The notes below the pieces were generated by a model. The model saw only the letters and a list, made by a program, of their open reading frames with translations, had not been told where the DNA came from and made no database searches. Shown here one piece after another: positions 1,223 through 53,992 of a stretch of 64,000 nucleotides of DNA. Made by a program: the position numbers and the translations under genes. The DNA is from Bilabrum cf. latius (lineage: Eukaryota), in assembly GCA_965178125.1 (NCBI GenBank), contig OZ237773.1:1-64000 (forward strand), read 5' to 3'. Numbering within the stretch: the first letter of the stretch is position 1; every line of letters begins with the position of its first letter.

Positions 1223-1989
1223 ACAGTCTGTTCTAGCTTCTTGAGCCACGATAATCACAACTTCTTCATAACCGTGCGATAGTATTCATATTATATTATG
1301 GCCCATGGTTCTCGATTCTCCAGGTTTTGATGCTTAGCCATGGATGTTACCGCTTTTGAGTTGGACTGTAGCGTAGGATATGACACTAGAAAAAATGCAG
1401 GATGGATCGTTGTTTGGAGTCTTTGCGAGCTAAACGGAATTCTGGCATAGCGGCATCTGGCCCCCAGCAGCAGTTGGGGTGGCTGGTTGGCAGCGAAGCC
1501 CGCAGGCATCAGGGTGTCACGGTGCTAGTGGATGAATTAAAGTAGCACATACCGATTTGATGACTCCGCCCGATAGAACTCGCAGCTTCAGCAGGATTGC
1601 CCAGTCTATACCTGCGGCGCCCCTGGCAGCTTCCGACAGGCAGTTTGGAGACCGTTACTTCGCAACACCCTCTTTGGGGTCCACTGGATCGTGAGTGGTG
1701 TGAAAGGGCAGCAAGAATGGGCTGGGACAGGAACATGCCCATCATACACGAAGTGGTTCGTGCTTCGCCGTACACTGCTGGCAGTTTCAGGGTTCCGCCG
1801 GGTTGACCTGATGGTTCCGGTTAGGGCAATCGGTCTTTTCGTAAAGGGGCATTTGCTATGCATCAAGCTATGTTTTAGGTATTTTTGTTTCTTTTTACTA
1901 CCATGCTTGATTCAGTTCATGGCCGCAGTTCCATCTGCAATTCTGGCGGGCAGGTCGCGAGGTTGCAATTTCCTAGCGGATTGCTGGTT

Positions 1990-4122: not shown

Positions 4123-4265
4123 CTGTTGTCTAAACCTCCACACGTCGCAGTCTTATCAGCTAGTGCTTGTCCCTTGGCCCAACACAAAATAGCTGCACCT
4201 GTCACAGCATTCACCGCTGCAGCTCACAGATCAGCCGAGGCCGCCAATGGGAACATAATGCCGTT

Positions 4266-13615: not shown

Positions 13616-14752
13616 TCACATCCTGCCGTGCGCGCTGGCCTGGTCCGCCGGCCATAGGAGGTCCTTGGTCAGCTCAAACACGAGGAAGCCCGTGGCATTG
13701 GCGGGAATGGACCGGGTCATGCTCGGAGAGAGGCCCCTCAGAAAGCCCCTAGGGCCCTCATCCCGCATGATCCTCTTGGCGCAGTCGAGCCAACCCCGGT
13801 AGGTCCGCTTGGCAGGGTCCACTGCATCCACCTGCAGCTGGGACTTGATCACGTCCGCCGGCTGCGCCAGGAGCCAGTAGAAGAAACCGCCGAGTCCGCC
13901 GGCCGCAAACACCTCCAAGCTACTGGCCTGCCGGCGCCCACCCCCTGTCACGGCCAGCTTGGTAGCTTCATAGAAACCGAAATACATGGAGACCCCGATT
14001 GTGTTGCGCAGCGTCGTGGCCGCGTATCCCTGGAGCAAGCCTTGTGGGCCGCGCGATCGTACGATGCTACGCATACAATCAGCCGTGCTTGAGTACTCCA
14101 GAGGCTATCCTGCCTTGGCAAGCCCAATCTGCCGCTACATTTGTGACTTGATCAAATCCTACGGGCCCTCGATCGCAGCCACGATTACTCCTGTCGCCGC
14201 CCCCGCTGCAAAGAAGCGGTGCACATCTGCCAAACCCTAGTATTTCCCATTCGCCGTAAACAAATTGCGCATATATCCGTACGAAAAGAACTGGACAGCG
14301 TTGAAAAGACCCATGCCGACGAGAGGGGAAGCTACGCCTTTGTACAGCCCCGAGAAGCCCTCTTTGGCTAAAGTTTGCCTGCCTGCATCCATCATTCCTT
14401 TGTAAGCAGGATTTGATGCAGACTGCGTCTACAGCAGCACCTTAATCCTGCGATGAAATACGAATGTGTGTGGTTCGAACGCCTGCAACATGCTGAACTG
14501 GAACGCCAAGATGAGCCATTGGAACGGGACCACCACCCTTACGTGTCAAATGGATGCCCTGTTAAGCATATTCCAAATCCTGCCTGCATTACAGGGGGTG
14601 GTGCGTGGCATTACGCTTTTGTGAATGGCGAACCGAGACATTTCTTTCAAACGAGTGCATGGAGCGCAGATTCTCACAAACGTGCCAGCAACGAGGTTAA
14701 CCCAAGCTGGTGGTGGGGCCAATATAGGCTGAGAGCTAACCGACTTCGACAT
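13616..14752 (-). CDS. Mitochondrial carrier (SLC25), carnitine/acylcarnitine or basic amino acid carrier-like
   Basis: Exons 14752-14678, 14583-14543 and 14447-13616; GT-AG introns 14584-14677 and 14448-14542. Three Px[DE]xxK repeats: GHPFDTIKVLL*TQ, GP*DLIKSQM*, QPADVIKSQLQ. Also EGFSGLYKG and YRGWLDCAKRIMRDEG. Ends TGA. Confidence 0.93.
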
Positions 14753-25004: not shown

Positions 25005-28000
25005 TCAAGCGTATGCTAGCATGGCATCATCATCACCCCCCTCTCCGTCATTTTCATCAAATCCAAGGCCATCTTCGCCATCACCGAGCCCCACATCGAC
25101 ATCGCCTAGTCCCTGCGCCACGGATGAATTCACCTTGCTACTGCTTGCGGAACGACCACCGCTGACCGCGGCCATCAATTCCTCGGTTGACAGCTCTTGT
25201 GGGCCTCCCGCTCCAGACTGCCCCCCGCGTTTCCGTTTCTTCCTTGACTTGCCATGCTCTGCCTCCGCCGCCCGCTTCCTCTTGCGTTGCTTGACGAACT
25301 ACCCGTGCAGCATGTCCCACATGTGCCGCTTCCGTTGACTCTCTCCGACAGGAAGCACCAACGCCTGCAGCTCTTCATCATCAATTACCACGTCCACCGC
25401 TGCCTTGGGCTACGATGCTGATGCCGCTGGCTCCAGTGCCCCAGCACCTGAACCTACCGGCTCTATGGAATCAGGTGCCCTGTTGGCGGTGGTGCCGCCT
25501 TTTCTACTGCTCGCAGTTGGATGGATCGATTGGCTCCCTCCCCTGCCTGCATCTGCTGCACCGAAGCTCACGTCAGCATTGGCCCTGGCTCTGTGCTCGT
25601 CATTCAGCGGGACCCATTGCTCCTGGATGCTCCCGGCACTAGGTGCCAATTCCGCCGCCTCAGGATTGCTGGGTACCAGCGCGAGCTAGTCCCGGTCCCC
25701 TGAAGGGGCAGGCGCAACGGAAGAGGCTGCGTGTGCCGAAGAGGAGCCGGTCGTGCGCGCCCTCGTCCTCTAGCTCGTCGCCGCCCGAGGGTCCAGCACG
25801 TCCTGCACAGCCAAGGCACCATCTCGTGGAGCCACAGCCAGCCATCCGCCAAGCGCCGCGTCCGACAGCCCGGGTGGCTTGCGGTCGGTTCTGCGCTGCT
25901 TGCTGCGCAGGTCCCTGTGCAGCTCGGAAGCAATCCCAGCGGCGATCCGCAGGTACTGCCCCAGCTCTCGGTGCCTGCGCGCCTCGCTCGGCTGCAGCCC
26001 TAGGGTGCGAAGAAGACCAGTGGGCGCTGCCGAAGAGGAGGTGCCTGTGCCTCGGCTGGGCCCACGGTGGGGTGCACCCGGCGGGGCACTAGTGGCCCCC
26101 GAACCAGAGGCGCGCAGCCTGGCCCTGAGTGCACGCTCTGCCTCCAGGATCACTCGAGGATCGATGTGGACGTCACCATCGTGACTCGCTTGCGCCAGCC
26201 GCAGCATACGCCGCTCTCGCTGTTTCCTCTGCCGCACGCGGTCCACCAGCAGGGAGATGGGCTCGTCCTCGCTGCCGCTGTCCGAGGTGTCCCCGCCGTC
26301 GACTGCCCTTCTCCGGGTGGAGCGCATGGCTGCTTCCTCTGCCGCTAGGCGGGCGGCGCTAGGACTGCCCTGTTCTGCCGAGTAGCTTACAAGAGGGCCT
26401 GCTACTGAAGAAGCAGAGGAAGCCGAACCCGGCGCCTCAGCCAACCCGCCCATGTGCGACGCCGTTGCACGCCACAAGCCGTCTTCCTGAGGCTCCCCAT
26501 CGTCATGCTTGGACGCCTACACAGCTCGACGCAATGCCCGGGATACCCTTGCTGCACCACCGGGCTAGCCTAGGGCACGGGCAATTACCTCCTGCCTCTG
26601 GCGCTCGGCATCCTCGGGCTCAGACCCAGCCATCCCGCCCGCGAAGCTGACGTCAGCTGGGGTCAGCAGTGCAGAGCCGCGCAACGCAGCGGCTGCAGCA
26701 GCCTCAATTTTTTGCAGATGCTCCTGCGCCCGCTCTGCAGCCTGCGTCAGGGTAGGGTTTGCACCGTCCGTCGACTGCGGGCTTGCTGAATCACTGATGG
26801 CCTTCTTTATGCCAGGAGAAGTCCCGCTACTGCTGCTGCTGCTGCTGCTGCCACTCGGTACGGTGGACGGTAGGGCGGGAGGGAACACACCTGCCGATGC
26901 ATCGGTGGACTTGGCCCCATCCGAAGCAGATACAGCCCTGGCTCGTACAAACGCCGCCTCTCGCAGCCGAGCCCGCACAAACGACGGCGGGTCCGCGTTT
27001 ACGGTGGCCTGCACGACTGCTGCGGCCTCAGCCGGAGTGGAAGCCAGGCCACTAGCAATTGCTGCTTTGCGAAGAGACTTTATGGTCTCTTGTCCGAAGC
27101 CAGAATCGGAAGCGCCGCCTGTGGCTTGCTGCCCCACCCTGCCCCTACCCGAAGTGCCTGCCCCACCCCTCCCTGTGCCCCCCTGCTGCTGCTTCCACTC
27201 GTCCAGCGGAAGCAGAGACACTGCACTCTGCTGCAACTCTGCCAAGCGATCTGCCAACGTGGCCTCGCCAATTCCAACGGCCCGCGCCACGAACTAGGCA
27301 GACACGCGTAGCCCGTGCATTCGGCAAGCGATGACCAGACACGCGGCGCACACTCCCGATGGCCTGCGTCCCGCCACGATCCACTACCGCATGAAGAGCG
27401 CCGCTAGCCGCATGGCAGTCGTCCCCACGGCGTATGTGGCCTCTCCCAGCCGGAGCCGCTCCGCGTGCCTGTGCATGAAGAGGGCCGGGTCTGTGCGGGG
27501 CACCTCCAGCTGGGTGGCCTGCACCAGCCCAGAGTACATGCGGCCCAGGGCAAACACGTTCACCTGGCTAACATCCGAGAAATCTAAGAGCTGCACAGGC
27601 TGCTGGTCCCTGCGGCATGCGGCGTAAAGACACGCCGCCAGCAATGGGTCGGTCTTGCGCCCCTTGGCAAAGCCCTTCTGCAGAGCGAAGATGTAGATGC
27701 GCAGCGCGCCCTCCGAGTGGGCTGCGTCTAGTCGCAGCACGCCAGAGAAGGCCTGAATGACCCGCTTGGCCTTATCTACGGCCACTTGGTGGGCATCCCG
27801 CTGCTGGCCGAGCCCGACTGCCATGCCTCCCCCGGCCATCGACATGCCCCCAACAAACGGACGAGAGGATGTGGCGGACACGAACTAGCCCACTACGCTG
27901 CTGGATCCCCCAGCACCTTCCGAAAATTCTACCTGCGACACGGTCTGGTTTTCTGCTTGAACGTGGCCGCAGCTCATGCACGTGCTGTTTCCCTCGGACG

Positions 28001-35768: not shown

Positions 35769-38700
35769 TCAATCTAAGAACCTCTCGTCAACAAGAGTCT
35801 TCTCTGCAAGGTTAGCCTACCCCATCTCCATTCTGACATGATCAACACAAAAGTCTATGACAACTGTACAGAAAGCAGCGACCAATGCGTTCTCGGAATA
35901 TATGAGCGCTATCGCGAAAACAAGGAAATTGAAGTGAAGCAGATCAGCCTCCGCACCCCGAAGACATACTCTTTCAAGCCTTCCGTCATCGTCTGGTTCG
36001 AACACGGCGACTCCACCTCTTGGTCCACTTTGCTGCTATCCAAAGCCCTATGTACCAGCATTTGCACGGGCACTCTCTGCCTCGACATCAGGGGATGACT
36101 ATAGAAATCTTTCACAAAATCCTGGCATCCTAAACCGTCTTTGAATACCACCTTTGGTTTCATCCGATGCAACAAATGCACGAAGGAATCGACGGACTTG
36201 CTCCGACACTTCGTTCTTTGCCTAAGCTAAATCGAGTGGGCGCCCTTCTCTCAGATTTGGGCGACGCACCTGTGAAATCGCAGAGTCGAGTGTTGCATTA
36301 CCACTAGTCTCAACACCAGATGCGAGGCCCCGCTTCATAGACTAATTTCCAGTTGATCGAACCCGTTGACCCTGATTCTATCGCGAGAGTTCCAATTGCT
36401 TTTCGTATTCCCTTAATCGTACAAAGTGACTGTCGTACTTGTCTCGCCAGGCCTTTGGGAGGTGAATCTCAAAGGCCTGCTAATCCGCTTGGTCTGAGGG
36501 TGCACCCGGCAACCCGCGACCACCTCGAACAAAACCTTGTTCGTCTTGTAGCTGGGCTACTAGGGATGCCATTGACACATCTGCGAACTCGGTCGGAGCA
36601 TCGCAGTGTAAATAGTACCCGTGGTACTTGTCATCTAGGACGAGCAAGCTAACCTTTGCAACAGTACACAAGTCGATGAATCGCGTGTGAGGTGCCTGCG
36701 CGATGAACCGCTCCCATATGCCCCACACCCACAACCACTGCGTCGAAGCCACGATGCTAAACCACAGCGCCAACGATGCGAACTGCAGCATCGGATTCAA
36801 TGGCCCAGGCGTGAGGCTACCTGCGTCAGGTTTGGGTGTTGCCACGTAGATCATGCTGCCTGCATCAAGCATAACGGCCAGCGTGGCGCACAGCAGGACG
36901 GTGTGCACCCTCCTTACCGACTGTATCTCGCTCCACTCGTTGGCCATAAAGAGAGTGCGCCAAACGGAAATCGGCGCCGGAACTCCCACGAGCCCGTAAG
37001 CCTTGGCCGCGCGCCTGCCACCAACGGCTCCAGGTCCTCCTGCGCCTTGGAGCGACGAGGAGCCGGCTGCACCCTGTCCCTGCGCTCCACCGGCAGACGT
37101 GGAAGCAGACGATGACGGCTGTCCGATCCCTTGCGAATTGCCGCGCTCAGCCTGCAGCAGCTGCCCTGCCGACGCCGACGCAGCTGCTCCAGCGAAGAAC
37201 TGCCCCCCTGTTTGCGCGAGGAGCCCACGCGGCCTCTCCCAGTCGAGGAAGAAGATGTCCGCCCGAGTCTGCACCCAAATTACCTCGCACACCCGGACAA
37301 AGGCTCCCGCTGCCGCTGCCCACAGGAACCCGAGGAAGAGGTTGTAGGGGTTGCTCTCCTCTGGCAGGTGCCGCAGGTCGTCCAGCAGCATGTGGAAGGA
37401 CCGGGCCTGCAGCTTGTACACGATCAGCAGGTAGCCCGCCATGAGCCCCAGCACACCGGTGGTGGCCCACGCGAAGCAGTGGAAGGCCATGAGCACGATC
37501 CGGAGCACCGCCTCGCCGTTGCACCCCTGCTCGTCGTTCCCGCGCGTTGCCCTGCCCTGCCAGGTGTAAAACCGAAGCGCGGTCGAGAACACAGCGGCCG
37601 TCTGCGCGATGGCGAACAGCGCGATGGCGGCGTTTTCAAACCCGGACGTGTCCTGCCTGTAGGCCACGCGGAAAGACTGCTCCGCCTGGTGGTACCCGGC
37701 ATCTGCGGGCGCGGCACCGCCGCCAAGGGCGCCAGACCCGCCCCCCGATCCAGCCGTGGATCCCCCCGCCGCGATCGCCGCCTCCGCCTCGTCCTGCTGC
37801 GCGGGGTGGAAGAACTCCGCCCGCCTGGATTCGTACGTGATGTCTAGCTGCGGAGGCAAGATCAGCTCCCGGTCGTCCTCTTGCACGGGCACTGTCAGCC
37901 GCACCTGGCTGGCAAACCGCACCACCTGCGGCGGCTGCCCCGGCTGCACGGACCCCGCCGCGGCGTCGAAGAGGAAGAACCGCCGGACCAGCACATCATC
38001 CCCCTCCTGCGAGAGCAGCGCGTTTTGGTTCGGCTGGCTCCCGTCCTCTTGCTTGAGGCCCCGCACGCGGACAGGCACGGGCACCAGCCGCACGGGAGGC
38101 AGCTCGGCCCCGCTCCTGCCCCCGGCTTCTGCCTGCCCCCCATCCGCCTCGACGACGAACATCTCTAGCACCTCCGTGTGAGGCAGCACCCCGCCCAGGG
38201 GACCCTGAGTCGCAGACCGAGCCTGCCAGCCCGTCTGCCCCTGGCCCCCGCTGAGGGTGGGCCCTGCGCTCGCCAGCCTCCGCCTCCCGTCAGAGGTCAC
38301 GGTGGCACTAGACCCCGTGCCGGGGTCCCCCCGGCCCGCACCAGGTGCCAGCAGCGTGTCCGCGAGGCTCTGCTGGGCCCCGAACCTCCCCCCGCGGCCC
38401 CCCGCGAGCTCAGCATAGGCGGCCCTAGAGAGCGCCGTGCGTCTGGCGCCCAGAGCCCCCGCCGCCGCGTCACCCGCCGCAGCCGCCCGCGCCCGCTCCA
38501 TCGCGTCGGCTGCCATGCCGTCCAGCTCGCACACTGTCCTCTCGTCCGCCTCGGCACCGAATGCCAGCCACCCCGGCGCGCTCTGGGCCCCGTGCATCGA
38601 TGCCCCGTGCTCGGGCCTGCAGCGCTGCAGATGCCACCGCACAGGCTCCACGCCCAGCAGCTCCCCTCGCAGGCTCCACCGAGCCACCACCAGGCGCAGC

Positions 38701-40184
38701 GCCGAGAGCCGCCAGGGATACGAGCTCGTCACACCCGCCGCATCCCCCCTCCCTCGCTCCACGTCGAGCCCAAGCTTCATGCGCTGGTCCAGGACCCTGG
38801 TCTCGGTGGCGGCAGACACAGAGTCGTACACCAGGAATGGCACCAGAGACCCAGCCTGCGGCCAGCCCGCCCAACCGTGCTGGGCGGCGCCCGCACGGGC
38901 CCCCTGAATCTGCCGGTAGGCCCTGCATGCAGGGTGGCTAAAGTCGTACCCCGTCAGCACGCACAGGTTGGCCAGCACCTGGCACGCCTTCCCTGCCCCT
39001 GCCCCCCGCTGCTCCAGCTCCCTCAGAGCCCTCGCCCCCTCTGTGCCCGTGGACATGCCCTGGTCCCCGATCCAGGACCCCCCTCCGCCCAGGGACTCAC
39101 CCGCGCCCACCCCCGCCAGGATCGGTCCCCTGCTGACCCAGCACGCAGCCGCCGCCCGGAGGTACAGCGCCCGCATGGCCAGGGACTGGATGGGTCCCAC
39201 AGTCGCACCAGTGGCTCCCCCCTCCGAGGGGGGCTGCCTGACGTCCTCAAAGGTGACGGCGGCGGCGGCGGCGTCCCCAAGCCCCGCGTCTTCCAGCGCC
39301 ACCACAACGTCCTGGGGAACACAGGAGGGCCCGGCTCCGGATCCGGCCTCCTCCACCCCTGAGGACACGTACCCCGCCCCGCACCGACACACCCCGTCTG
39401 TGCCCATGCTGGCCCGGGGATCAGAGCATCCCCTGCACATGTAGGGGTCGGGCGCGTACGCCCCCACACCCCCCCGTGTCCCCGCCGCGTCCAGGGGCCA
39501 GAAGGCTCGCTGACCCGATGGGCACGGGACACATGCCTTGCGGGAGGGGGCGGCGGCGGAGGCAGCTGCATCTGCCAGGGAGACTGGGGTGTTCACGAGG
39601 GTCGCATTGGCCCCGCCTGTCCCCACAGTGGGGGCCACAGCGGAGAGAGCAGCGACGCCTTGCGGGGCGTCGGTCAGGACGTACCCAGCAGGACACGTGC
39701 ACTCGAGCGTGGTGCCGTTGAGCACGGACGAAAAGTCGGGTCGCCCGGGGACGGTCCCCGGCAACGGGCACTGCATGCAGCGGGTGCCGTCCCTGGAGGC
39801 GGCCCGCCCGTCCGCCGCGCACTGCCGGCACGGCGGCCGGATGCACGCAGCGGGAGACGTGACGTCGCAGGTAGAGGAGTTCGTCGGGATCTCAAGGGCG
39901 TACCCGGGCCCACATCTGCAGCCCATCGCGTCTCCGAGCACCCCGACAGATCGCACGTCGGGCATGGCGGGCGCGTCCGTGTCCGTGCTGCCAAGCACCG
40001 AAAAGCGACCGGCGCACGGCAAGCACTGGAACGCTGCGCCGTCGCGCGCGGCCCCGCCAGCGCTCGTGATGCTACCATCGCAGTACTCTAGCTCGAGTTC
40101 TTGCGATTGCTGAGCCCGTGCACCAGAGAAACATACCGCAACCAAAGCAAAAGGTGCAACCGAAGCAACAAGTAAGCGTCGCAT
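35769..40184 (-). CDS. TMEM67: Meckelin (TMEM67/MKS3), ciliary transition zone
   Basis: Signal peptide, Cys-rich ectodomain, CQVLANLCVL, DIFFLDWE, ISVWRTLFMANEWSEIQ, FIDLCTVAKVS and HGYYLH. C-terminus G*ANLAEKTLVDERFLD-TGA is reached only through 8 TAG codons. Confidence 0.95.
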
Positions 40185-40464
40185 GGTTGGATCGACACTC
40201 CGAAGGTCACGCCGCACTTCACGTGGACACTCCCTCGCGTTAACTTTCAGCAAGTGGCCTAGCCACGGCATATGGTGATTGCAGGTCTCGAAAATAGCGG
40301 AAAATAGGCAGCCGTTTGAAACCGAATTTGTAGCGTGTAGATTTGCCAGAAAAGGTCCGTTGCATGCGAATCGCAGTAGACAAGGGCGAACAGCCCGAGC
40401 ATCAACCATTTCACGCATCATCATATACATTCATAGGTAACTCAAGCGAACTGGCCTTGCGACG
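40185..40464. promoter_or_regulatory. Probable bidirectional promoter region between TMEM67 and CCDC39
   Basis: About 280-bp AT-richer interval between divergent start codons; inferred from geometry only. Confidence 0.5.
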
Positions 40465-43400
40465 ATGGCATCTAGCGGGGATGGCGCCCCTGGGTAGGAT
40501 CGTGAGCAGGATGTACCATTGGCAGGTGGCGAAGCAACGGGAGGAGAGGTGCCTGAACACCGCGGGGGCGATCCGTACGATGAATCAAATGCTTAGGCGC
40601 AAGGAGGCGACGGAGATGCGGGCGGCGGTGGCGGAGCGCCAGCCGGCGGGTACTGGGGGTACGGGGACGGCGGGGCCGGCGGACAGGACGACGATGTCGA
40701 GGATAGCAGCGACGAAGACAGCGAAGACGAGGACCTTGATCACGAACTGCCCGATTTTGCGTCCAGAGAGACCCGCGCCCTGATGGAGACCGTGAAGCAA
40801 GCAGAGGCGAGCACGGAACAGTACGAATCGCAGGCTGAGCAGCACAAGGACCGGCTGCAGGTCATGCAGGAGCACTTGAAAAACGTCAGGGCCGAGCTCA
40901 AGCAGACGCAATCTCTCCTCTCTGCCCGCCGCCGCGCCATCGAGCAGGAGGACAGGGCGCGGGCGCTCGCCGAGCGGGAGATCGGTCGGTGCAGGGCAGA
41001 CCTGGCAGAGCTGGACGCGCGCGCGGAGGATGTGGCCGACGCGATGGCCAGCAAGCAGGCGGACATCCACCGCGGGCTGGAGAAGCTCGAAGACTTCAAG
41101 GCGAAGAGCGAGATGACGCAGGAGCAGCTGCAGCAGTGGGCTGCCGCTGCCGCGCAGAAGGAAGACGACGCTCTGGCGCTGGCCCGGTATGCAAAGGCGG
41201 ACGAGGGCAAGATCAAGGAACTGTCGCTGGCGCTGGAGAAGCTCGCCCAGGCCGTGGATGCCCGCAAGAAGGCCCTTGAACAGGCGGTCACCTCCACCCA
41301 GGGCAAGCAGGCGGAGCTGGACTCGGCGGCGCAGGACTTCCAAGCGCTGCATGCGGAGCGCGAGAAGCTGCTCGAGCAGCTGGCGGCCGCAGTCCGTGAC
41401 ATCAGACGCAGGGACGAGGCGATCGCGGAGCAGGGGAGGGCCTACGCGGCCGCCCGGCAGAGGGTCCGGGACAGACGAGAGGCCGTGGACAGGCTGGCGG
41501 CGGCCCAGGCCCGGCAGGAAGCAGACAACAAGGAGGTGGAGCTGCAGACGGAGCAGGCGGGCCGCGACCTGGGGGCCCAGAGGCTGCAGCTGAACAGGGC
41601 GCAGGAGATGCTGCAGGCGGCCGAGGACGAGGCGGCGCTGCAGAGGGCAGAGGTGGGCAAAGCGGCAGCGGAACTTGCGCGGCGCCGCACGGAGCGGGAC
41701 CAGCTGCGCGAGTCGATCGGGCAGTCCGAGGAGAAGCTTCGGGCTGCGCTGGCCAAGGAGGAGGCCGCGGGCAAGCGGAAGGCCGAGGCAGTCAGACGTG
41801 CCTCCAAGCTGGGTAAAGAGGCAGACAAGAGGGCCATCCAGCTGGAAGAGCAGAAGATGGCGCTGGAGCGGCTGGAGAGGGAGTGCGCCCAGGCCAGGGA
41901 GCGGTAGTTCCGGTTTGGCGAGGAGCTGGCGGCCCTCCGTCGGCAGGAGGAGGAGCTGGCCCAGGGGATCGCAGGGGCCCACTCGGCCGGTCGCAACCTC
42001 CAGCAGGAGCTGGGCAAGCTGGACAAAGAGGCGGCCCGGCAGGCCGAGCTGGTGTACGCCGCCGAGTTCCAGGTGCAGGCCATGGAGCGGAAGCTGGCCC
42101 GCGTGTCTGGGCACGTGAGCGACGAGGAGAAGGTGCGGCTGGAGGCCAGGCAGGGCGAGCTGAACGAGGAGCTGAAAGGGGCCGAGGGGGTGAAGGCTGA
42201 CCTGCAGCTGCAGCTGCGGCGCATGGAGGATGAGGCCAGGAGGGCGAGGAGGAGGCAGAGGGAGCTGGACGAGTCAGTGGCGAAGGCCAGGGCCGCCATC
42301 GCAGAGGTGCAGCTGCAGGCACGGGCGGGGGAGTCGGCGCTCAAGGCGGCAGCCAAGGAGCGGGACGAGGCGCAGGTGGAGCACGACGTGGTCAAACTGG
42401 ACGTGCGGAGGCTGAGAGCGGCGCTCGCTGCCGCCAGCGACGCCGTGTTTGGCCTGGAGAACCGGTCGGCCCAGCTGCAGCTGTCCATGCAGGAGCGTAG
42501 GAAGGAGGTGGAGGCGCAATCCCAGCTGCAGAGGGCGGAGTTCAGGCTCGCCGAGGAGGCCAGGCACAAGGCGGCGCTGGACCTGAGGGAGAGGGAGGCC
42601 AAAGTGGGGGCGCTTAACCGGAAGTACGAGGCCGTCCGGGCCAAGGGTCTGGGCGCGGCAGCGGCCGCTGCGGGCGAGTCAGTGTCGGAGGGGAAGGACG
42701 GTGGCGGGGGCGGGGAGCCGCGGTCTCAGGCGTACTTCGTGATCCGGGCGGCGCAGCGGCGGGAGGAGCTGCAGCGGCAGGGCGATGAGCTGAACGCGGC
42801 CGTGGAGGGGGCCAAGCGGGAGGCGGCGGCGCTGCGGTCCACGCTCAAGAAGCTGCAGAAGCGAAATGCCGTATTCAGGCAGAGCTTCCGGCCGGCGGAC
42901 GGGACGACGCAGGCCGAGAAGGCGGCACGGCTGGAGCAGGAGGCGCAGGAGGCGACAGACGCGGTGTTCCGGTCCAAGCGTGCCCTGCAGCGGGCAGCCG
43001 CAGACATCGAGGCAGCGAAGGCGCGGGCCACGGATGCGTCGAGGAGGGAGGCAGCTCTACGGGGCAGGTCTGACGAGTTGGAGGCGAGGAGGAGGCAGGC
43101 GGAGGAGGAGCTGGAGGCGGCGCGGGAGAGGGCGCAGGCTGCGGAGGAGGCCGTGGGGGAGGCTAGGGCGGCTCTGGTGCTGGCGATGGAGGGTGGGGAT
43201 GGCGGTGATGGGAATGGTGGTGGGAGTGCTGCGGGGGGACACCAGGAGGGCAAGGGGTAGGAGGAGGCGGAGGAGGTGCGTGCGGCGGGCGCGGCGGGGC
43301 TCGGCACGCGAGGGGGGGCCACTGCGGTGGAGGAGGCAGCGGTGCGGGCCGAGGCACTGAGGGCCAATGCGGCCGCGGTGATGTTCACCTTGGGGCAGCT

Positions 43401-43521
43401 AGCGAGGGAGTTTCCAGCCATGCGGCCGGCGTTGCGATAGGCGGCCCAGAGGCGCGGCCTGCGGGTGCCGGCCAAGAAGCCGCCCAGGGCGAGCACCGAT
43501 GTGCCGGCCGGCGCCAGCTGA
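40465..43521 (+). CDS. CCDC39: Coiled-coil domain-containing protein 39 (axonemal 96-nm ruler, FAP59)
   Basis: LPDFAS, MQEHLKNVRAEL, AQKEDDALALARYAKADEGKIKEL, YAAEFQVQAMERKLAR and SQAYFVIRAAQRREELQRQGDEL. In-frame TAGs include 41905, 43258 and 43438; ends TGA. Confidence 0.92.
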
Positions 43522-43828: not shown

Positions 43829-45913
43829 ATGGCCTGGTCGGCTGACAAGTGCGCGTTTGTGGTTCGAGACGGTACTGAGCGTGTTGCTGTTGCGGATAGA
43901 GTGTCGCTGATCTTCGGTCACCTGTTGGCATCGATTGGTCACAACGTACCACTTATTATTGCGATATCTGGTAATTGCAAGAGCGGGAAGTTACCTTTCG
44001 CAAGGCTACTGGCTGCTAAGCTCGGCCGCCGGTGCATGGGTGCAGCCGATCTCCCCGGGAAGGAGGCCAACGTTGCAGAAAGTGCTGCCGTAGTTGTTCG
44101 CGCAGAAGCTGTTTTTGGTTCTGTTATCACAACAACGCCAAGAAAGGGTGGCAGCGGTGCCGATGATTCCATAGCATTTGGTGTGAAGCACTTGGTGTCT
44201 GCCGCAAGCAAGGCTGCAATGGTTTGTGTTACTGGTCGCAGCCACAACCAGGTCCTCCAGGTGTCTCGAGCTTTGCATGCAGCAATTTCGCATACTGGTC
44301 GTACTGCCCACAAGGCTCGTGGGGTTGGTTTTAGCGACAGTGCATTCCGCCTTGCATCGTTGCAGCAGCACCTGCCAGTGCCTCTGGTGGCGGTTCACAT
44401 CCAAGACGCCGGGATTCAGGAGCAGCAAGTCATACTGAGAGACTGGGAAATTCCTAGAGCAGCGGTTGCCATGGGTCTGGTCTCTGCCGGTCGCCGAGAC
44501 ACGCCCCTACCATCGGCTGCAAGCACCAGCAGAATCCAGCAGCAGAAGCAGTGCCCACTGGCAGCCCGCGAGCTTGAAGCGGCAGTGCTGCGAACGGGAT
44601 GGATCGGGAAGGACACGGCACCAGCAGCCGTCATCACGCGCGCACTCATCACAGAGCACGCCCTCGACAGCCTCTGCAGGTGCTACGTGAGGCCAGAGGG
44701 ACACCTGGGGTCAAGGCGACCGAGAGTGGCAGGGGATGCGTCCGTCGGGTCGTAGCTGGGCAGAATTGCCACTCGTGTCGTGGGCTGGCACATCTATACA
44801 CAGGCGCGAATCGGCACCGCTGGCAGTGGGCGATGCAGCAGTCTAGGTTCGATTACGTCGGCAGATTTGCCTGGCCTCATGCAGGAGCCGCCGATCGCAC
44901 CCTATGCAGTTCCTGGTCCCTTGCGTGGCATACAAGGCCCGACTCGCATCGTATGGCCCGCTTCGTGCGCTCGTGTTGCGCGGGATCGTCAGCGACTGTG
45001 CTCGCGTGGCGATCCGTTCACCGCCGCAGAAGCCACGGCCAAACCACAAGATGGCAGTTCTGGCTTGGGTAGAGCTGAGATGATGAAGGGGTTGGGTAAG
45101 CAAGATCCCCTGTGCTTCCCAGTGGGTCGGTCGGTTGCACTGGCTGCGGATGGGGAAGGGTGCGGCACGATCGTTGTGGTGGACGCTTGGATCGACGGCG
45201 GGACGACTGCATCCACCGGTGACTCAATGCGCGGTGCGTTGCAGCTGCCGCGGTCCATCAGAACAACTGGATCCATGGGGCAGTCGATGGCTGAGTCCGT
45301 GCACGTGGCATTCTCGCTGGCCAAGCGGGTCATGATAGGCGCTGCATGTGGTGCCATGAGGGCGGCGAGGGGTACAGCTGCCAAAGCGCAGGATGCGGGA
45401 AGTCTGGGAGAGGAACCACCGCGCAAGACGATGGATGCACACTGTATGCCCTCCGATCAACCGTGCTCAGTCCTGCACGTGCACCTGTGGCGAGGCGGGC
45501 AGAAGAAGGACGGCCCATCTGCCGGCATTGCCTTCCTCATCGCGATCCTGTCTGCCATGTCTGGCATCGCTCCGATTCATCACTGCTGCACCGGGGAAGT
45601 CACTCTATCCGGAGATATCCTTGCAGTCGGAGACATACGCTCCAAGGTGCATGCTGGTGTCGCCGCTCTGGCACCATCGCACGATGTATTGGCGGGGCTC
45701 CGGGGAGACTTGCAACCACAGGCAGGTGTTGGGCGGGCCAACCGCGCCGGTGTTGTAGTGGTACCGATGGCCAACCGGGCCACAGTTGCATCGCTTCCGG
45801 ATGTGGAGATAGGGGCCGGGGCTGTCAAGATTGTTGGGGCGAGCTCAGTGAATGTGGCGCTGGCGTGTGTGGGGCTTGGAGGGGTTCTGGCGAGGGAGGA
45901 GGCAAGGCTATGA
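43829..45913 (+). CDS. Lon protease-like protein (peptidase S16 domain, degenerate AAA+ region)
   Basis: TGSMGQSMAES, HVHL...KDGPSAG (catalytic Ser) and TGEVTLSGDILAVGDIRSK (catalytic Lys); N-terminal ISGNCKSGKL resembles a broken Walker A. One TAG at 44753-44755 joins the two ORFs; ends TGA. Confidence 0.82.
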
Positions 45914-46072
45914 TACTTGGGTAGGCAGGCTCGGGTGTGGGGCTTGGAGGGGTTCTGGCGAGGGAGGAGGCAAGGCTATGATACTTGGGTAGGCAGGCTC
46001 GTGTGTGGGGCTTGGAGGGGTTCTGGCGAGGGAGGAGGCAAGGCTATGATACTTGGGTAGGCAGGCTCGGGT
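45865..46072. repeat. Tandem repeat, 3 x 68 bp, spanning the Lon-like stop codon
   Basis: GTGTGGGGCTTGGAGGGGTTCTGGCGAGGGAGGAGGCAAGGCTATGATACTTGGGTAGGCAGGCTCG recurs at 45867, 45935 and 46003. Confidence 0.93.
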
Positions 46073-46522
46073 GATAGGGGCTAGGATGCACAGCGGTGGA
46101 CTGGGGTCTATTCCTGACTAGATTCGAATGACTCGGCTTGAGGCGCATTTCCTGCTCTGCCCTGGCCCTGGCCATGGGCAAGCAGTGGGCACTGCTTGCC
46201 CATGTCACCGTCCAGTGTGGATGCGGGTGCAACGAGACAGGGAGAGATCCTTACGCGTCGAGAAAGAGTTGCCTAGGAACTTAATTTGGATAGACCATGC
46301 TTGAGTGTGTTGAATTCAAAGCTCTTACGATTGGCTCCACTTCAAATTTGTGCCACAGTGGTGCCCGGTTTAGCCGCGCAGTGGTTCCGCAACCTGCGGT
46401 TCGTTCGTTCTGTTTTCATGCTGCATTGTTTGAGTTGATTTCAACAAATATTAGAACCCAGCCCCCGGAGCCTACACTTTGCACCTTCACACGGGGGCAT
46501 CGTAGAGCTGTTTGTACGGGAA

Positions 46523-49500
46523 ATGTCTCATTCTAGCGGATCCAACGAACTAAACATCCACAATGGGCAGACAGCTGCTCGGAGCGGCACCGAAACTGGC
46601 TTGCTTGTTGCTGCGGCTCCGCTTCAAGCCAACAGTCCTCCCGGTGATGGAGTGTTGCAGACCGCCTCAAGCCAGCAGGTGAACGAATCAGGGACCGTAA
46701 TCCAACGAGCACAAGGACATCCACAAATAGTGTATGGTTCAGCTGGCGCTCCGTCCTCCAAAGGGCCTGACATTGAAAAAAAACCTCGATCAACTTTCAC
46801 CCAAATCGAGTCCCGTGCGCGAGGGGGTTCTCAATCAGAAGAGTAGTCGGAACGGGCCATTGCTGACGACCTCGGCCTCGGCAATGGGCCCAAGAAAGGC
46901 GCTGAGGTGGCTGTGGCAACAGGGTACCAGCCAGTTCCAGAGCAGCCCGACATTTACGAGGCAGCCAGCATGGCGGGTGATGCAGCGGCCCATCAACCAG
47001 CAGGCGGCCATCCCTCTGTGGCCGAAGCTTACACGTCAATTCCCGATCAGATTCCCGGTAGTGGTGGAGTGAGTGCCGGTCCGGTTCTATTGCCAACTGA
47101 AGGAGCCGAAGCTGACACTGTCTCGCCAGGTGCTTCTTCCACAACCTCCTCAAGAGCGGAAAAGGAGCGTGTTCTTCTACAAGGGTCTCACGGTGCATCC
47201 AGACCGGCTGCATCTGGTGCGGGTGCTGATGGTGGCCATTCTAGCGCTGGGCGGGGAGCCATGAATGGAATACTTGCCCCGTTCAACAGCGGCGGTGCTG
47301 CAGGTCGCCAGCCTGGTTTTTTGGCAGCCAAGCGCACGGTGGCTCTCTACCCGCACGAGCAGAAGGAGCGCACGCAAAAGCTGGAGAAGATTGGTCAGCT
47401 GTTTCAGGCCGACGTGCAGAAGGCGCTGGAGGGCTTCCCCGAGGTGGAGATGCTGTGGAGGGGCGATGATCCCGTTGGCTTCACCGATGGGGACAAGGCC
47501 AAGATCGAGGAGGCCCTGGGTCTCAAGTTCATCGATGCGGGCGGTAAGGCTGGGGGCATCAAGGCTGTGCATGAAGGCCTGGGTCTGTTCCTGAAGTTCG
47601 CCTTCGACCACTTGTGCATCTACGGCAGCACGCGCATGGCGGCCAAGGCGGCGAAGCGGGAGGCGGCGGCGAGTCGTTGGGTACACGCGATGGACAGCGT
47701 GCACGTGTCTACTCCTCTAATGGAGTGTGTGGACCTGCCTCTGCGTGTGATGGGAGGCACTGACCGGGTTATACGGGTGCAGGTGTATGCCAAGGTTAGC
47801 GTGAAGGGGAAAGAGACGATGCGAGTGGGTTCCGCCGACGGCTGTAAGTCAATGCACGAGGATGCGGAGCAGGTGTCAGATGTGGTGGAGCCGCTGGCCA
47901 GGCATTTCTGCATTGCACCTTACGATCGCACGCTCGGCACTTGTTATGTGCACTCATACAGCAGGGCGAGCTCTGCACCAAAGAGCACGTTCTTTGATGT
48001 GCTCGAGTCTATTGGCATGGATTCGGCAGCCGTGCAAAGGATCAAGAGCGCCTGTGACCCGAGGCATCTAGAGCTCACCGAGGAGGCCAAGAGGAAGCTT
48101 TCAAATAAAGAACGGGCACTGGCCCAAGCTGTATACGATGCCATCAAAGACACCGGGGCAGTCTTGGACTACAGATGCGTTGCTAACGGTGGCGTAATGC
48201 ATCGCGTATTGACGAAGCTGGACAGCCCAGTGAGGCTACGCTTGCCTTTCGACGTGGAGGTCCACCAGCTTGCCAGCGGCTAGAGGATGGTGCTTGACAC
48301 GCATCGGTTGCTGATCCCAGACGGGCCGTGGATGAAATGGATGAGATCTGATGAGGCTAAACCCAGGGTCTATGCCATTGTTCTGGGTAGGGATGGCAAG
48401 TGGCATCCAGTCCGTGGCCAACTGGCATTAGATCCTCGCAAGCCATCCAAATACAGCTCATCGTCGCTGTCTGAACTTTTGTGTGAGTGGTGGACGAAAG
48501 AAGGAAGGAGCGCTATTGCCAGCGCTGGTTCCGACCATTCCATCGAAATTTCATTTCCCAAAGAGGGTACGGTTGACCACGTGGACTCTGGCTGCGCTTC
48601 ATTCCAGGGCATTGATACAAGCGGCTAGGTGACAGCCCTGGGCTTGGTGTCATGTCCTCGGTGGTACTACTGCGGCAACAGGAGGCTGACTTGCCTGCTG
48701 CCACCTGAAGCTAGCACCCGTCTGCGCGCCGTGATGGGGACTGATTTCCGGGGGCTTTGCCCTGACTTGATCATGAGTGAGAGCGACGGTGGGGCTGCCA
48801 GCTCGAGGGCAAATGAGGCGATCGGAAGGCTGTACGACGAGGCCAGGTCTCGTGGCATGGACAGGTATACTGAATGCTTATCCGTGTAGAAGACAAGCAT
48901 GCCTGGCTTTGACCCTGCCAGCAATCATGCGGCTCACCGGACCGTACTCAAGCGAACAATGCACTCTATGGGGCTGGGGCTGCGACATGTGAGGCTACTG
49001 GTGGATTCATGCACTGACGGTGCACTGCGGGCGTCGATCGTCAGGACGATGTGCGCAGGTGCAATGAGAAACGCAGGCAGGCTAGCGAACGTGCTGGATC
49101 AGATGGGGACTGGGTGCAGTCGGGAGTTTATCGAAAACACCACGGCTGCGGCTGTTTGTTTCGCAAGCAAGGGAATCTCGGTAGGTCCAGGATCATTGGC
49201 GGGCCTGAAGTGGGATGAACGTATCAAAGCACGCTTGTCTGAACCTTGTGCTGGAACTGGACTCGCTGCCGTAGGAGGTGCGTACCACTGGTCGCCGCAG
49301 TCCGCCGCTCTGTCGCTCGTGGCAGAGCTCAAGCACATCCAGCAAGTGGGAGGTAATGGGCAGGACAATGCGCTGGCTGCACTGAGCAAGCTAGCCAAGC
49401 GCTCATCAGGCATGCACGCCGTGGAGCTGGCTGCAACGGCAGCACGTGCACAGTTAGCAGCGAAGAATGAAGAGTACTAGGCCTAGTCTAGTGCCACTGT

Positions 49501-52500
49501 CCCAATCTTGTCACAACCATCATCACGATTTCGGCACATTTTGCACCGTACGGCCAAATGTTTAAACTAGCATGGCAAGTATGGCGAGGCACTGGATCTG
49601 CACGATTTGTGCCGGGCTATTGAAGAATGCGTGATGGGCAAGATTCATCCCGACTATGCGACCACACTTGGCAACATGGCTCAATGCTTGCAGCATCAGG
49701 GGAAGTATGGCGAGGCGCTGGACCTGCACGAGGAGTGCCGATCTATCAGGGAGCGTGTCTTGGGCAAGAAGCACCTCGCCTATGCGGCCACGCTTGGCAG
49801 CATGGCTTCATGCTTACAGTATCAGGGCAAGTATAGCGGGGCGCTGGATCTCTACGGAGAGTGCCGGGCTGCTATTGAGCGTATGCTGGGCAAGGAGCAT
49901 CCCCACTATGCGAGCACACTCGGCAACATGGCTCAATGCTTGCGGTAGTAGGGCAAGTATGGCGAGGCGCTCGATCTGTATGTGGAGAGCCTGGCAATTG
50001 AAGCACGCGTATTGGGCAAGGAGCATCCCAACTTTGCGACCACACTTGGCAACATGGCTCAATGCTCAGAAGGGTAGGGCAAGTATGGCGAGGCGCTGGA
50101 TCTGCATGGAGAGTGCCGATCTATCAGGGAGCATGTGTTGGGCAAGGATCACCCCCACTATGCGACCACAATTGGCAACATGGCTTCATGCTTGAGGGCG
50201 CAGGGCAAGTATGGCGAGGCGCTGGATCTGTTTAAGGAGAACCAGGCCATTGTTGAGCGTGTCTTGGGCAAGGAACATCCTGAGTATGCGACCACACTTG
50301 GCAGCATGGCTTCATGCTTACAGTATCAGGGCAAGTATGGCGAGGCGCTGGATCTCTACGGAGAGTGCCGGGCTATTGAAGCACGCGTATTGGGCGAGGA
50401 GCATCCCAACTTCGCAACTACACTCGGCAACATGGCTTCATGCTTGCGGTAGCAGGGCAAGTATGGCGAGGCGCTCGATCTGCATGGAGAGTGCCGGTCT
50501 ATCAGGGAGCATGTCTTGGGCAAGAAGCATCCCCAATATGCGACTACACTTGGTAACATTGCTTCATGCTTGCAGGCGCTGGGCAAGTATAGCGAGGCGC
50601 TGGATTTGCATGGAAAGTGCCGTTGTATTGTTGAATGCGTATTGGGCAAGGATCACCCCGACTATGCGACCACACTTGGCAACATGGCTTCATGCTTGAG
50701 GGCGCAGGGCAAGTATGGCGAGGCGCTGGATCTCTACGGGGAGTGCCGGGCTATTGTTGAACGTGTCTTGGGCAAGGAACATCCCGACTATGCGACCACA
50801 ATTGGCAACATGGCTCAATGCTTGCAGTATCAGGGGAAGTATGGCGAGGCGCTGGACCTATACGGGGAGTGCAGGTGTATTGTAGAACGCGTATTGGGCA
50901 AGGAGCATCCCGACTATGCGACCACACTTGGCAACATGGCTCAATGCTTGCAGCATCAGGGGAAGTATGGCGAGGCGCTGGACCTGCACGAGGAGTGCCG
51001 ATCTATCAGGGAGCGTGTCTTGGGCAAGAAGCACCTCGCCTATGCGGCCACGCTTGGCAGCATGGCTTCATGCTTACAGTATCAGGGCAAGTATAGCGGG
51101 GCGCTGGATCTCTACGGAGAGTGCCGGGCTGCTATTGAGCGTATGCTGGGCAAGGAGCATCCCCACTATGCGAGCACACTCGGCAACATGGCTCAATGCT
51201 TGCGGTAGTAGGGCAAGTATGGCGAGGCGCTCGATCTGTATGTGGAGAGCCTGGCAATTGAAGCACGCGTATTGGGCAAGGAGCATCCCAACTTTGCGAC
51301 CACACTTGGCAACATGGCTCAATGCTCAGAAGGGTAGGGCAAGTATGGCGAGGCGCTGGATCTGCATGGAGAGTGCCGATCTATCAGGGAGCATGTGTTG
51401 GGCAAGGATCACCCCCACTATGCGACCACAATTGGCAACATGGCTTCATGCTTGAGGGCGCAGGGCAAGTATGGCGAGGCGCTGGATCTGTTTAAGGAGA
51501 ACCAGGCCATTGTTGAGCGTGTCTTGGGCAAGGAACATCCTGAGTATGCGACCACACTTGGCAGCATGGCTTCATGCTTACAGTATCAGGGCAAGTATGG
51601 CGAGGCGCTGGATCTCTACGGAGAGTGCCGGGCTATTGAAGCACGCGTATTGGGCGAGGAGCATCCCAACTTCGCAACTACACTCGGCAACATGGCTTCA
51701 TGCTTGCGGTAGCAGGGCAAGTATGGCGAGGCGCTCGATCTGCATGGAGAGTGCCGGTCTATCAGGGAGCATGTCTTGGGCAAGAAGCATCCCCAATATG
51801 CGACTACACTTGGTAACATTGCTTCATGCTTGCAGGCGCTGGGCAAGTATAGCGAGGCGCTGGATTTGCATGGAAAGTGCCGTTGTATTGTTGAATGCGT
51901 ATTGGGCAAGGATCACCCCGACTATGCGACCACACTTGGCAACATGGCTTCATGCTTGAGGGCGCAGGGCAAGTATGGCGAGGCGCTGGATCTCTACGGG
52001 GAGTGCCGGGCTATTGTTGAACGTGTCTTGGGCAAGGAACATCCCGACTATGCGACCACAATTGGCAACATGGCTCAATGCTTGCAGTATCAGGGGAAGT
52101 ATGGCGAGGCGCTGGACCTATACGGGGAGTGCAGGTGTATTGTAGAACGCGTATTGGGCAAGGAGCATCCCGACTATGCGACCACACTTGGCAACATGGC
52201 TCAATGCTTGCAGCATCAGGGGAAGTATGGCGAGGCGCTGGACCTGCATGGCGAGTGCCAGGCTATTGTTGAACGTGTCTTGGGCAAGGAGCATCCCGAC
52301 TATGCGACCGCACTCGGCAACATGGCTTCATGCTTGCTGGGACAGGGCAGGTATGGCGAGGCGCTGGATCTGCATGGCGAGTGCCAGGCTATTGTTGAAC
52401 GTGTCTTGGGCAAGGAGCATCCCCACTATGCGACCACACTTAGCAACATGGCTCAATGCTTGCAGTACCAGGGCAAGCATGGCGAGGCGCTGGATCTCTA

Positions 52501-52777
52501 CGGAGAGTGCCAGGCTATTATTGAACGCATGGTGGGGAAGGAGCATCCCCACTATGCAACTACACTGAGCAATATGGCTTCATGCTTGCTGGGGCAGAGC
52601 AAGTATGGCGAGGCGCTGGATCTGTATGGAGAGTGCCGGGCTATCAGGGAGCATGTCTTGGGCAAGGAGCATCCCGACTATGCAGCCACGCTTGGCAGCA
52701 TGGCTTCATGCTTGCTGGGGCAGAGCAAGTATGGCGAGGCGCTGGATCTGTTTAAGGAGAGCCAGGCCATTGTTTAA
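46523..52777 (+). CDS. Large protein: ~1000-aa N-terminal region of unknown family plus an array of ~25 42-aa TPR repeats (kinesin light chain/NPHP3-type)
   Basis: One frame from 46523 joined by TAG codons; repeat consensus QGKYGEALDLYGECRAIVERVLGKEHPDYATTLGNMASCL; first TAA at 52775-52777. Confidence 0.85.
49646..52248 (+). repeat. Higher-order tandem duplication, period 1260 bp (10 x 126-bp TPR units)
   Basis: 49646-50905 matches 50906-52165 wherever compared; ORFs recur at exactly +1260 (49656/50916, 50135/51395, 50516/51776). Identity ends near 52249. Confidence 0.93.
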
Positions 52778-53992
52778 CGTGTGTTAGGCCAGGAGCATCC
52801 TTAATGCTTAGCCTTGCTGAAGAACAAAATCGCCTGTCTTCTCGCTCAAGGGAGGCATGCAGAGGCGCTATCCCTTGAGCCTAGACTACAGATCAGTTTT
52901 TTTCCATCAACCACACCCATTGGCCCATCTTCACGGCTGCTGCAATCCCCACTGGTTGGCAGTTACCAAAAAGAAAATTCCTGCCCCCGGTCCCGCGGAC
53001 CCACTGGGCTTCACCCCGAACGACTGGTTCTTCACCGGTCCACCTGAATGCTATGTTTGCAGCTACGAGGCTAGCAGCGATCGCCAGCCGACGACGCTGG
53101 GTTCCGTGTACACTACGAATGTACACGCCACTTTCCCAATGCACCCGACTGGCCTCGTCGCCACATGGCTTCCTGTTCCCGTTCCCCGCCCTAGGGACTG
53201 TGTGCTTTGCTCCCTGCATTGCCACCTTGGCCCTATCCTTTCAGCTTGCACGTGCCGGTCCTGGCCGAGCTGCCGTGCGCCCCATCTGTCCACCCACCTG
53301 TTGGCCCTCTGCGTGCTGCTGGCCATGCAGCCCGCTGCACCCGCGTCTCCCTCGTGCCTTGCGCCTGGAGCCCCCATTCCTCCCGTTGTGATCTCCCTGT
53401 TGACACCGCACTGTCGTCGTCTGTGCCGGTGTCCCCCTCTTCTTCTCCACCTCCTGTCCTCCTGCGCCCACCTCGTCTTCCTGCTCACCTCTGCTCCCCG
53501 TTGCTTCAATCCTGATGTCCGAGTACATATAACGAGGCCACCTTGTTGAAAGTCGACGAGACACTGCAGTACCAAGGCAAAATCATGAAGGCAATTGACA
53601 TGTACAAGCAATGCTTTGCGATCCGTGATGAAGTGCTGGGGAAGGACCACGTCGGCTATTTGGGGACTCTAGGCCGTATGGCTAGGTGCCACGCCCAAGG
53701 GGGCAAACCGGCTAGTTCTACCGCATTTGAACCTAGACTTAAGATTAGATTTGTTCCTTCAACCACACCCATTGGCCAGCTCGCAGCCCGCCACGGCCAC
53801 AGCTCAACCGAGTGGCGGGCTTGCTGTTGGATTCAGGCCGTGGCCCTTTCTGGGTGCCATGATCCTGTCGTTGCAGCCCTCTGTGCATCCAGAGGATCCG
53901 GGGGTTGCGTCGGTGCTTCGCACTGCCGACGCAGGCGTCCGCGCCTCGGCTGTACAGCAGTTGCGACCGGGCGCAGAGTAAGGTTGCCGTAA
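52778..53992 (+). pseudogene. Degenerate TPR-module remnants downstream of the TPR gene
   Basis: After the TAA the frame still reads RVLGQEHP*CLA...AQGRHAEALSLEPRLQISFFPSTTPIG. A diverged second copy, QYQGKIMKAIDMY...VLGKDH...EPRLKIRFVPSTTPIG, lies at ~53560-53780. Confidence 0.5.

Follow-up and report, generated by a model that had tools for sequence, protein, structure and literature searches.

Departures from the standard nuclear genetic code are rare. NCBI translation table 6, in which UAA and UAG both encode Gln, is used by many ciliates, ulvophytes, Hexamita, Streblomastix, and Amoeboaphelidium. Rarer still are lineages in which UAG has changed meaning while UAA stays a stop codon, of which two earlier accounts describe a handful (PMC5304391, PMC11687900). 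Among them, the fornicate Iotanema spirale is described as reading UAG as Gln, with UAA and UGA as stops and UAA as the primary stop (PMC5304391), and the ciliate Protocruzia tuzeti and two phyllopharyngean ciliate lineages as having UAG only reassigned to Gln (PMC11687900). UAG is reported to encode Leu in the uncultured rhizarian exLh (PMC5304391) and Ser in Scotinosphaera (PMC11687900), and code 15, with TAG encoding Gln and TAA and TGA as stops, is reported for crAss-like and other phages (PMC9523058). Here, we describe positions 1 to 64,000 of contig OZ237773.1 (assembly GCA_965178125.1, deposited as Bilabrum cf. latius), a stretch that we call the window and that includes a gene for a tetratricopeptide repeat (TPR) protein in which TAG and CAG alternate at the same position of the repeat. 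The original prediction was that TAG behaves in this gene as a synonym of CAG, and it is supported by 115 in-frame TAGs in conserved genes, by Gln sites in Brf1 and in a mitochondrial carrier, by the Brf1 gene of a relative, and by selection acting on the repeat units. The alternation in the repeat protein is thus supported as one facet of a window-wide UAG-to-Gln code. We consider it probable that UAG is a sense codon in this organism, most likely for Gln, that UGA (the main stop) and UAA terminate translation, and that the TPR gene is live.

Read with TAG as sense, the window holds 13 main open reading frames (ORFs) of 711–3315 codons, which add up to 18,118 codons and include 115 in-frame TAGs; ORFs of at least 300 codons then total 32,619 codons, up from 15,126. 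The off-frames of the same stretches contain 321 and 425 TAA and TGA codons per 18,118 codons, so that open frames this long are not due to chance. Pfam identifies the ORFs as coding for a JmjC protein, a kinesin, Brf1, MCM4, CDC45, meckelin, CCDC39, a protein with a Lon C-terminal domain, the TPR protein, and THADA, and the Pfam and PDB matches span in-frame TAGs. Each of 14 genes, namely the 13 ORFs and a mitochondrial carrier gene with introns, has at least one TAG, the carrier having five. These genes end in TGA in 12 cases, in TAA in two and in TAG in none, and in-frame TGA is absent from the 18,118 codons, the 13 ORFs being free of internal TAA and TGA by construction. TGA is retained as a stop. 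In-frame TAG, in turn, is tolerated in conserved genes and at conserved Gln positions, and is the terminal codon of none of the 14 genes. Even close to a 3' end it appears to be translated: a TAG in meckelin (35817..35819, minus strand) lies 15 codons before the TGA stop, and because the conserved motif NLAxKTLVDERF lies after it and is kept in 8 of 9 homologues (P0008 is gapped there), this TAG must be read through.

In-frame TAG is also common to at least one distinct relative. A 2253-bp metagenome contig, L001, encodes a Brf1 that is 60% identical to that of the window (413 of 683 aligned residues), in one open frame of 750 codons that carries five TAGs and no TAA or TGA. Three protein fragments from databases (P0010–P0012), of 143–202 residues, are 76–95% identical to parts of Brf1, and the end of P0011 coincides exactly with an in-frame TAG of L001. 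These fragments look like relatives' genes that were split by gene calling under the standard code.

The residue encoded by TAG was sought in alignments of 150 Brf1 representatives, 120 MCM4 homologues and 9 meckelins. At residue 164 of Brf1, a TAG (27885..27887, minus strand) occupies a column that is Gln in 114 of 146 homologues; among the other residues there, Ser occurs 10 times, Lys and His three times each, and Leu not at all. A second line of evidence comes from the carrier, whose threefold repeated signature, P-x-D-x-x-K-x-x-x-Q, has TAG, TAG and CAG as its Gln codon in repeats 1 to 3 (14429-14431, 14135-14137 and 13832-13834, all on the minus strand). The repeat-2 TAG aligns with the Gln of UCP1 and UCP2 and with an Ala of the ADP/ATP carrier, and the repeat-1 TAG, which falls outside the local PDB alignments, was placed from the gene's own three repeats. 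At two further Brf1 residues, the nearest relatives have Gln although most eukaryotes do not: at Brf1-331 it is found in P0011, which forms part of L001, is 76% identical and uses the codon CAG, and at Brf1-1026, where most eukaryotes have Asp or Glu (87 of 130), in the 91%-identical fragment P0010. The MCM4 TAGs are uninformative, their columns being variable, gapped, or made up of Thr, Asn and Ala, and most of the meckelin TAGs are likewise at variable or gapped positions. For the 11 TAG columns of the three alignments that had enough homologues, profile log-odds came, in bits, to +6.1 for Gln, -2.0 for Asn, -4.8 for Asp, -7.2 for His, -12.4 for Glu, -13.4 for Lys, -13.9 for Ser, -28.1 for Tyr, -30.2 for Leu and -31.6 for Trp. 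As a control, the same procedure decoded 57 of the 61 sense codons correctly, the four misses having 4–14 columns each. Judged from these alignments, Gln is clearly the best reading of TAG, with a margin that rests on about five strongly conserved sites. Editing of UAG to UGG (A-to-I) was rejected on the score for Trp.

TAA is most likely still a stop codon. The 18,118 codons contain no in-frame TAA, compared with about 35–39 expected from the ratios of A- to G-ending codons (CAA:CAG 187:543, GAR 272:807, AAA:AAG 120:385). The kinesin gene ends in TAA, two codons and another TAA, which look like tandem stops. It is because of this absence, the kinesin tandem and the 750 TAA-free codons of L001 that TAA is regarded as a terminator.

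The TPR gene occupies a stop-to-stop ORF of 2112 codons on the plus strand (46439..52777), with its first ATG at 46523, 15 in-frame TAGs and a TAA at 52775-52777. No TGA or TAA interrupts this frame, whereas its other two frames hold 31 and 61. The gene (46523-52777) is proposed to be live and to encode a protein of about 2100 residues whose C-terminal half is an array of 42-residue units of the KLC/NPHP3 type. This classification is supported by Pfam matches well above the cut-offs: TPR_12 (E=6.6e-264, 19 stretches, 853 bits against a cut-off of 30.1), TPR_10 (E=4.2e-221, 24 stretches, 710 bits against 27.5), and TPR_NPHP3, the nephrocystin-3 TPR profile (E=3.3e-96, 322 bits against 100). Six of the TAGs belong to the N-terminal part of this ORF, which is unique (46844, 48281, 48626, 48887, 49478 and 49484; overall 46844..49486, plus strand). 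This part, TAGs included, was recovered in contigs of two runs from two separate studies: X1, with 0 differences over 46400-47450 and 47653-49675, and X5, with 0 differences over 46472-47449 and 47653-49675. X1 may be the source sample; X5 is probably DNA, and none of the runs on record is listed as RNA. Among the rows listed, contigs of paralogues differ at 48280 and 48284 and show no change at the TAG 48281-48283, an observation to which no weight is given here. The unique N-terminal region of about 1000 residues matched no Pfam family (CLU scored 21.2 bits, below the cut-off of 24), and a search with residues 300-1012 against proteins 556-1771 residues long yielded no homologue at E<=0.001. 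One N-terminal segment, 47457-47758, has a depth of 500-1000 in the X1 contigs, compared with 43 in its flanks, and is represented there by many variant contigs; because of this depth, it is assigned to a large multi-copy family, with perhaps 10–20 or more copies in the genome.

The array itself (49559..52834, plus strand) consists of 26 in-frame units of 126 bp, or 42 codons, the last of which is cut by the TAA. Tandem Repeats Finder reports 25.7 copies of period 126 over 49569-52800, with 79% matches and 0% indels, and in the register beginning at 49559 the unit takes the form C-L-x-x-Q-G-K-Y-G-E-A-L-D-L...H-P-x-Y-A-T-T-L-G-N-M-A. An alignment of all units with a tabulation of their codons, which the original prediction had proposed as a check, shows that the Q column (column 5 of C-L-x-x-Q-G-K-Y) is CAG in 19 of the 26 units, TAG in 4, CTG in 2 and CAT in 1. 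The four TAGs claimed for this column, at 49949, 50075, 51209 and 51335, are all present and in frame, as are the strings CGG-TAG-TAG-GGC-AAG at 49943 and CGG-TAG-CAG-GGC-AAG at 50447. The preceding column 4 is variable and has TAT in 6 units, GCG in 6, TAG in 5, GGG in 4, CAT in 3, and GGA and TAC in 1 each, so that TAG alternates there with codons for Tyr, Ala, Gly and His.

Although all four Q-column TAGs are real, just two of them are independent. The 1343 bases of 49646..50988 (plus strand), which comprise ten units and 83 bases, recur without a single change at 50906-52248, displaced by 1260 bases, the length of ten units, and for this reason the TAGs at 51209-51211 and 51335-51337 are exact copies of those at 49949..49951 and 50075..50077, respectively. 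Both of these independent events are present in X1 contigs, the former with 0 differences. The same holds for column 4, where the TAG at 49946..49948 is copied at 51206-51208 and that at 50450-50452 at 51710-51712, a further TAG lying at 49568-49570 (all on the plus strand). The array thereby reduces to 16 distinct units with five independent TAGs (49568, 49946, 49949, 50075 and 50450), with only two of them in the Q column. The X1 contigs have a depth of 78–80 over the array and 43.5–43.7 in the unique flank, which fits a genuine two-copy block and not an assembly slip. In X5, the corresponding values are about 19.5–19.8 and 6.6–7.2. The array therefore stands at about 1.8 times the depth of the flank in X1 and 2.8 times in X5, and its copy number may differ between samples.

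Even in this reduced set, the placement of TAG is not what would be expected if it were uniform. A total of 138 codons at conserved positions of the 16 distinct units either are TAG or differ from it by a single base, and these are distributed over the E (38), K (31), Y (28), L (25), Q (14), G (1) and T (1) columns. Both TAGs in conserved columns sit in the Q column, for which P = (14/138)^2 = 0.010 under uniform placement; in the remaining 14 distinct units, this column has CAG 12 times and CTG and CAT once each. The repeat units are under purifying selection: the ratio of nonsynonymous to synonymous substitution rates (dN/dS) stays below 1 in all 105 pairs among 15 distinct units, with a median of 0.38, the 16th unit with the TAA tail having been left out. 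That the repeats downstream stay intact was part of the original prediction and agrees with the absence of indels and with these ratios; neutral decay after the first TAG, which would have spoken for nonsense mutations, was looked for and is not seen. The array by itself demonstrates tolerance of TAG; Gln is hinted at and not proven. It is weaker evidence than the original prediction took it to be, and it is the evidence from elsewhere that carries the reading of TAG.

The following mechanism would account for the alternation. A C-to-T change in a CAG codon would yield TAG, and if UAG encodes Gln this change is synonymous, which is why TAG and CAG could alternate at the repeat Gln with no harm to the sequence downstream. 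A tRNA-Gln with the anticodon CUA would read UAG, eRF1 would be blind to it, and the UAG codons in these genes would then be translated.

Several observations weigh against this reading of the code. The advantage of Gln from external homologues is modest, about 8 bits over Asn, and a number of TAGs face other residues. The column of Brf1-331 is Asp in 143 of 148 homologues, P0011 being the only one with Gln. The column of MCM4-971 is Thr in 73 of 119, that of meckelin-1363 is Gly in 8 of 8 within a poorly aligned stretch, kinesin-248 lies at the Asn of a G-Y-N motif that is Asn in all four solved kinesins listed, and the single aligned TAG of CDC45 faces Arg in the yeast protein (PDB). In the comparison with L001, 1 of 11 TAG-residue pairs has Gln, three have Lys, and Ala, Val, Arg, Pro, Leu, Asp and Ser account for one each; the four pairs in well-aligned surroundings have Ala, Gln, Lys and Lys. 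The Q column of the TPR unit, for its part, also admits Leu (CTG) and His (CAT). The decoding machinery is wholly postulated, because no tRNA gene lies in the window: ARAGORN found 0 in the 64 kb. Likewise, no eRF1 turned up when the 13 long ORFs and five further stretches were scanned with Pfam. Some doubt also attaches to TAA, because the TPR frame beyond its TAA (52778..53047, plus strand) can still be recognised as a TPR-like unit, though a diverged one, and runs to a TGA at 53045-53047. This unit has a second in-frame TAA at 52802, and two other units read CAA at the corresponding position. The last repeat may have been truncated recently, or TAA may occasionally be read.

These mismatches bear most directly on whether TAG, though sense, stands for another residue, such as Asn, His, Lys, Glu, Leu or Ser (lineages are known in which UAG encodes Glu, Leu or Ser). 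The three Lys pairs with L001, the Ser that faces TAG in P0010 at Brf1-989, the Asn of the kinesins, and the CTG and CAT codons of the TPR Q column all lean this way, as does the score of His, which reaches +2.6 bits once the TPR columns are added. We nonetheless regard a residue other than Gln as unlikely, since all six of those named score below zero in the external alignments and Gln above it, since Brf1-164 and the carrier signature are Gln sites, and since no TAG occurs in the conserved K, E, Y and L columns of the TPR units despite 122 codons there that are one base away. The tail of the TPR gene would be more at home in a code of the table 6 type, in which TAG and TAA both encode Gln, TAA has become nearly extinct through high GC and TGA is the sole stop: the frame continues past the TAA at 52775 as a TPR unit to a TGA 90 codons later, and its second TAA matches a CAA column. 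Such a code is improbable in view of the complete absence of TAA where 35–39 would be expected, its absence from L001, and the tandem TAA of kinesin, and reading TAA as sense extends few ORFs, and these at their ends only.

The preferred reading, UAG as Gln with UAA and UGA as stops, can also be set against explanations that leave UAG at least partly a stop codon. UAG might have a dual meaning by context, as sense inside genes and as a stop near 3' ends (the type of Condylostoma and of Blastocrithidia UAA), and late TAGs do occur in THADA (11 and 7 codons before TGA) and in CDC45 (13 codons before TGA). That none of the 14 genes, a small sample, needs TAG as its stop and that the late meckelin TAG is read through make this very improbable. 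If the code were standard and the TAGs in DNA became CAG in mRNA by U-to-C editing, the same pattern of TAG at Gln positions would result; yet many TAGs lie in variable, non-Gln columns, as would a free synonymous or near-neutral codon and unlike targets of repair, and we know of no nuclear U-to-C editing at about six sites per 1000 codons in every gene. We give this explanation hardly any credence. Equally hard to credit, and refuted for the window as a whole, is that the repeat gene is dead and untranscribed and its TAGs are nonsense mutations. The array is indeed repetitive and in part a very recent duplicate, but its 26 units contain no frameshift, every unit pair shows constraint, and in-frame TAGs also occur in MCM4, CDC45, Brf1, kinesin and the carrier, which cannot all be dead. 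A pseudogene was rejected on the 0% indels, the median dN/dS of 0.38 and the lack of TGA or TAA in 2112 codons.

Turning to the rest of the window, the mitochondrial carrier gene (13616-14752, minus strand) has two short introns of the GT-AG type close to its 5' end. As judged by eye, the first exon begins with the ATG at 14752, the second ends in ...CCATTTGACAC, and the third begins at 14446. Introns thus exist in this genome, while the large genes look intronless. Three ORFs matched no Pfam family: 4231-11949 (minus strand, 2572 codons, 27 TAGs), 1807-4122 (plus strand, 771 codons, 11 TAGs) and 19002-21203 (minus strand, 733 codons, 3 TAGs). The ciliary genes for meckelin (minus strand) and CCDC39 (plus strand) are arranged head to head within 35769-43521; their stop-to-stop frames are 10 bp apart (40430/40441) and their first ATGs about 35 bp apart, and the gap may be a very short shared promoter region. 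At 45867-46086, a 68-bp unit is repeated 3.2 times (96% matches), overlapping both the end of the gene with the Lon domain and the spacer that leads up to the TPR gene.

The window begins with 174 copies of ACCCTA (1-1044, 98% matches), a TTAGGG telomere read on its C-rich strand, followed at 1046-1223 by 4.1 copies of a 43-bp subtelomeric repeat, and because of this telomere repeat at its start it is taken as a chromosome end. The GC content ranges from 52 to 73% and is about 60% overall. Judging from its gene content, the window is the nuclear chromosome end of a flagellated, intron-poor eukaryote, as indicated by the ciliary genes, the mitochondrial carrier, the telomere and the few introns. 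A phage or prokaryotic origin was rejected on the eukaryotic genes, introns and telomere. In a FastTree phylogeny of MCM4 with 118 rows, from which the aberrant P0161, P0162 and P0233 were left out, the query falls in a 12-row clade (support 98) nested in a 32-row clade (support 99) that contains Pythium and Hondaea, the only two named stramenopiles. The named plants, green and red algae, fungi, animals and Balamuthia branch elsewhere in the tree. The stramenopile affinity is possibly real and serves as a lead, based on one gene and on a set with no named alveolate, rhizarian or excavate. That the organism is a stramenopile, belonging to a clade of environmental sequences beside an oomycete and a labyrinthulomycete, in a group for which no deviant nuclear code has been reported, is accordingly a tentative placement that we would not favour over its opposite.

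The code of the window is most likely, from the alignments and gene ends, of the NCBI table 15 type, with UAG as Gln and UAA and UGA as stops, a type already known in few lineages. If this holds, gene calling under the standard code shatters the genes of this organism, and annotation and metagenome binning of its lineage need the right table. No report of a reassigned UAG in a stramenopile or in a GC-rich eukaryote was found in the limited literature searched. Should the placement also be correct, this would be the first case of stop codon reassignment among stramenopiles.

Among the systems described at the outset, the phages with code 15 share the assignments but are set apart by the content of the window: MCM4, CDC45, kinesin and meckelin are eukaryotic nuclear genes, and GT-AG introns and a telomere accompany them. 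The lineages with table 6 share the change from stop to Gln and the interchange of TAG with CAG, but differ in the absence of TAA from the 18,118 codons analysed here, and MCM4 stands apart from the named green plants and algae and fungi. The rhizarian exLh and Scotinosphaera likewise have UAG uncoupled from UAA in a nuclear code, and the meaning differs: here, Leu and Ser score -30.2 and -13.9 bits and Gln +6.1. Protocruzia tuzeti and the phyllopharyngeans have the same codon with the same new meaning and UAA retained. The telomeres of ciliates are usually of the C4A2 or C4A4 kind. The window is set apart from these ciliates by its (CCCTAA)n telomere, by a chromosome longer than 64 kb, by a GC content of about 60% and by the dominance of TGA. 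Iotanema spirale is also a non-ciliate flagellate in which UAG alone became Gln and UAA was kept as a stop. Its primary stop is UAA, however, and TGA ends 12 of 14 genes here; the present organism also has about 60% GC, a TTAGGG-type telomere, a mitochondrial carrier and a Lon domain, and its MCM4 groups with stramenopile sequences in a comparison that did not include fornicates. A further GC-rich, non-ciliate case with TGA as the main stop would be informative about the way in which UAG comes apart from UAA and about whether stop codon capture needs AT pressure, for if the present reading is correct, the capture of UAG only, at about 60% GC and with UGA as the main stop, is the compositional opposite of what is seen in the AT-rich ciliates.

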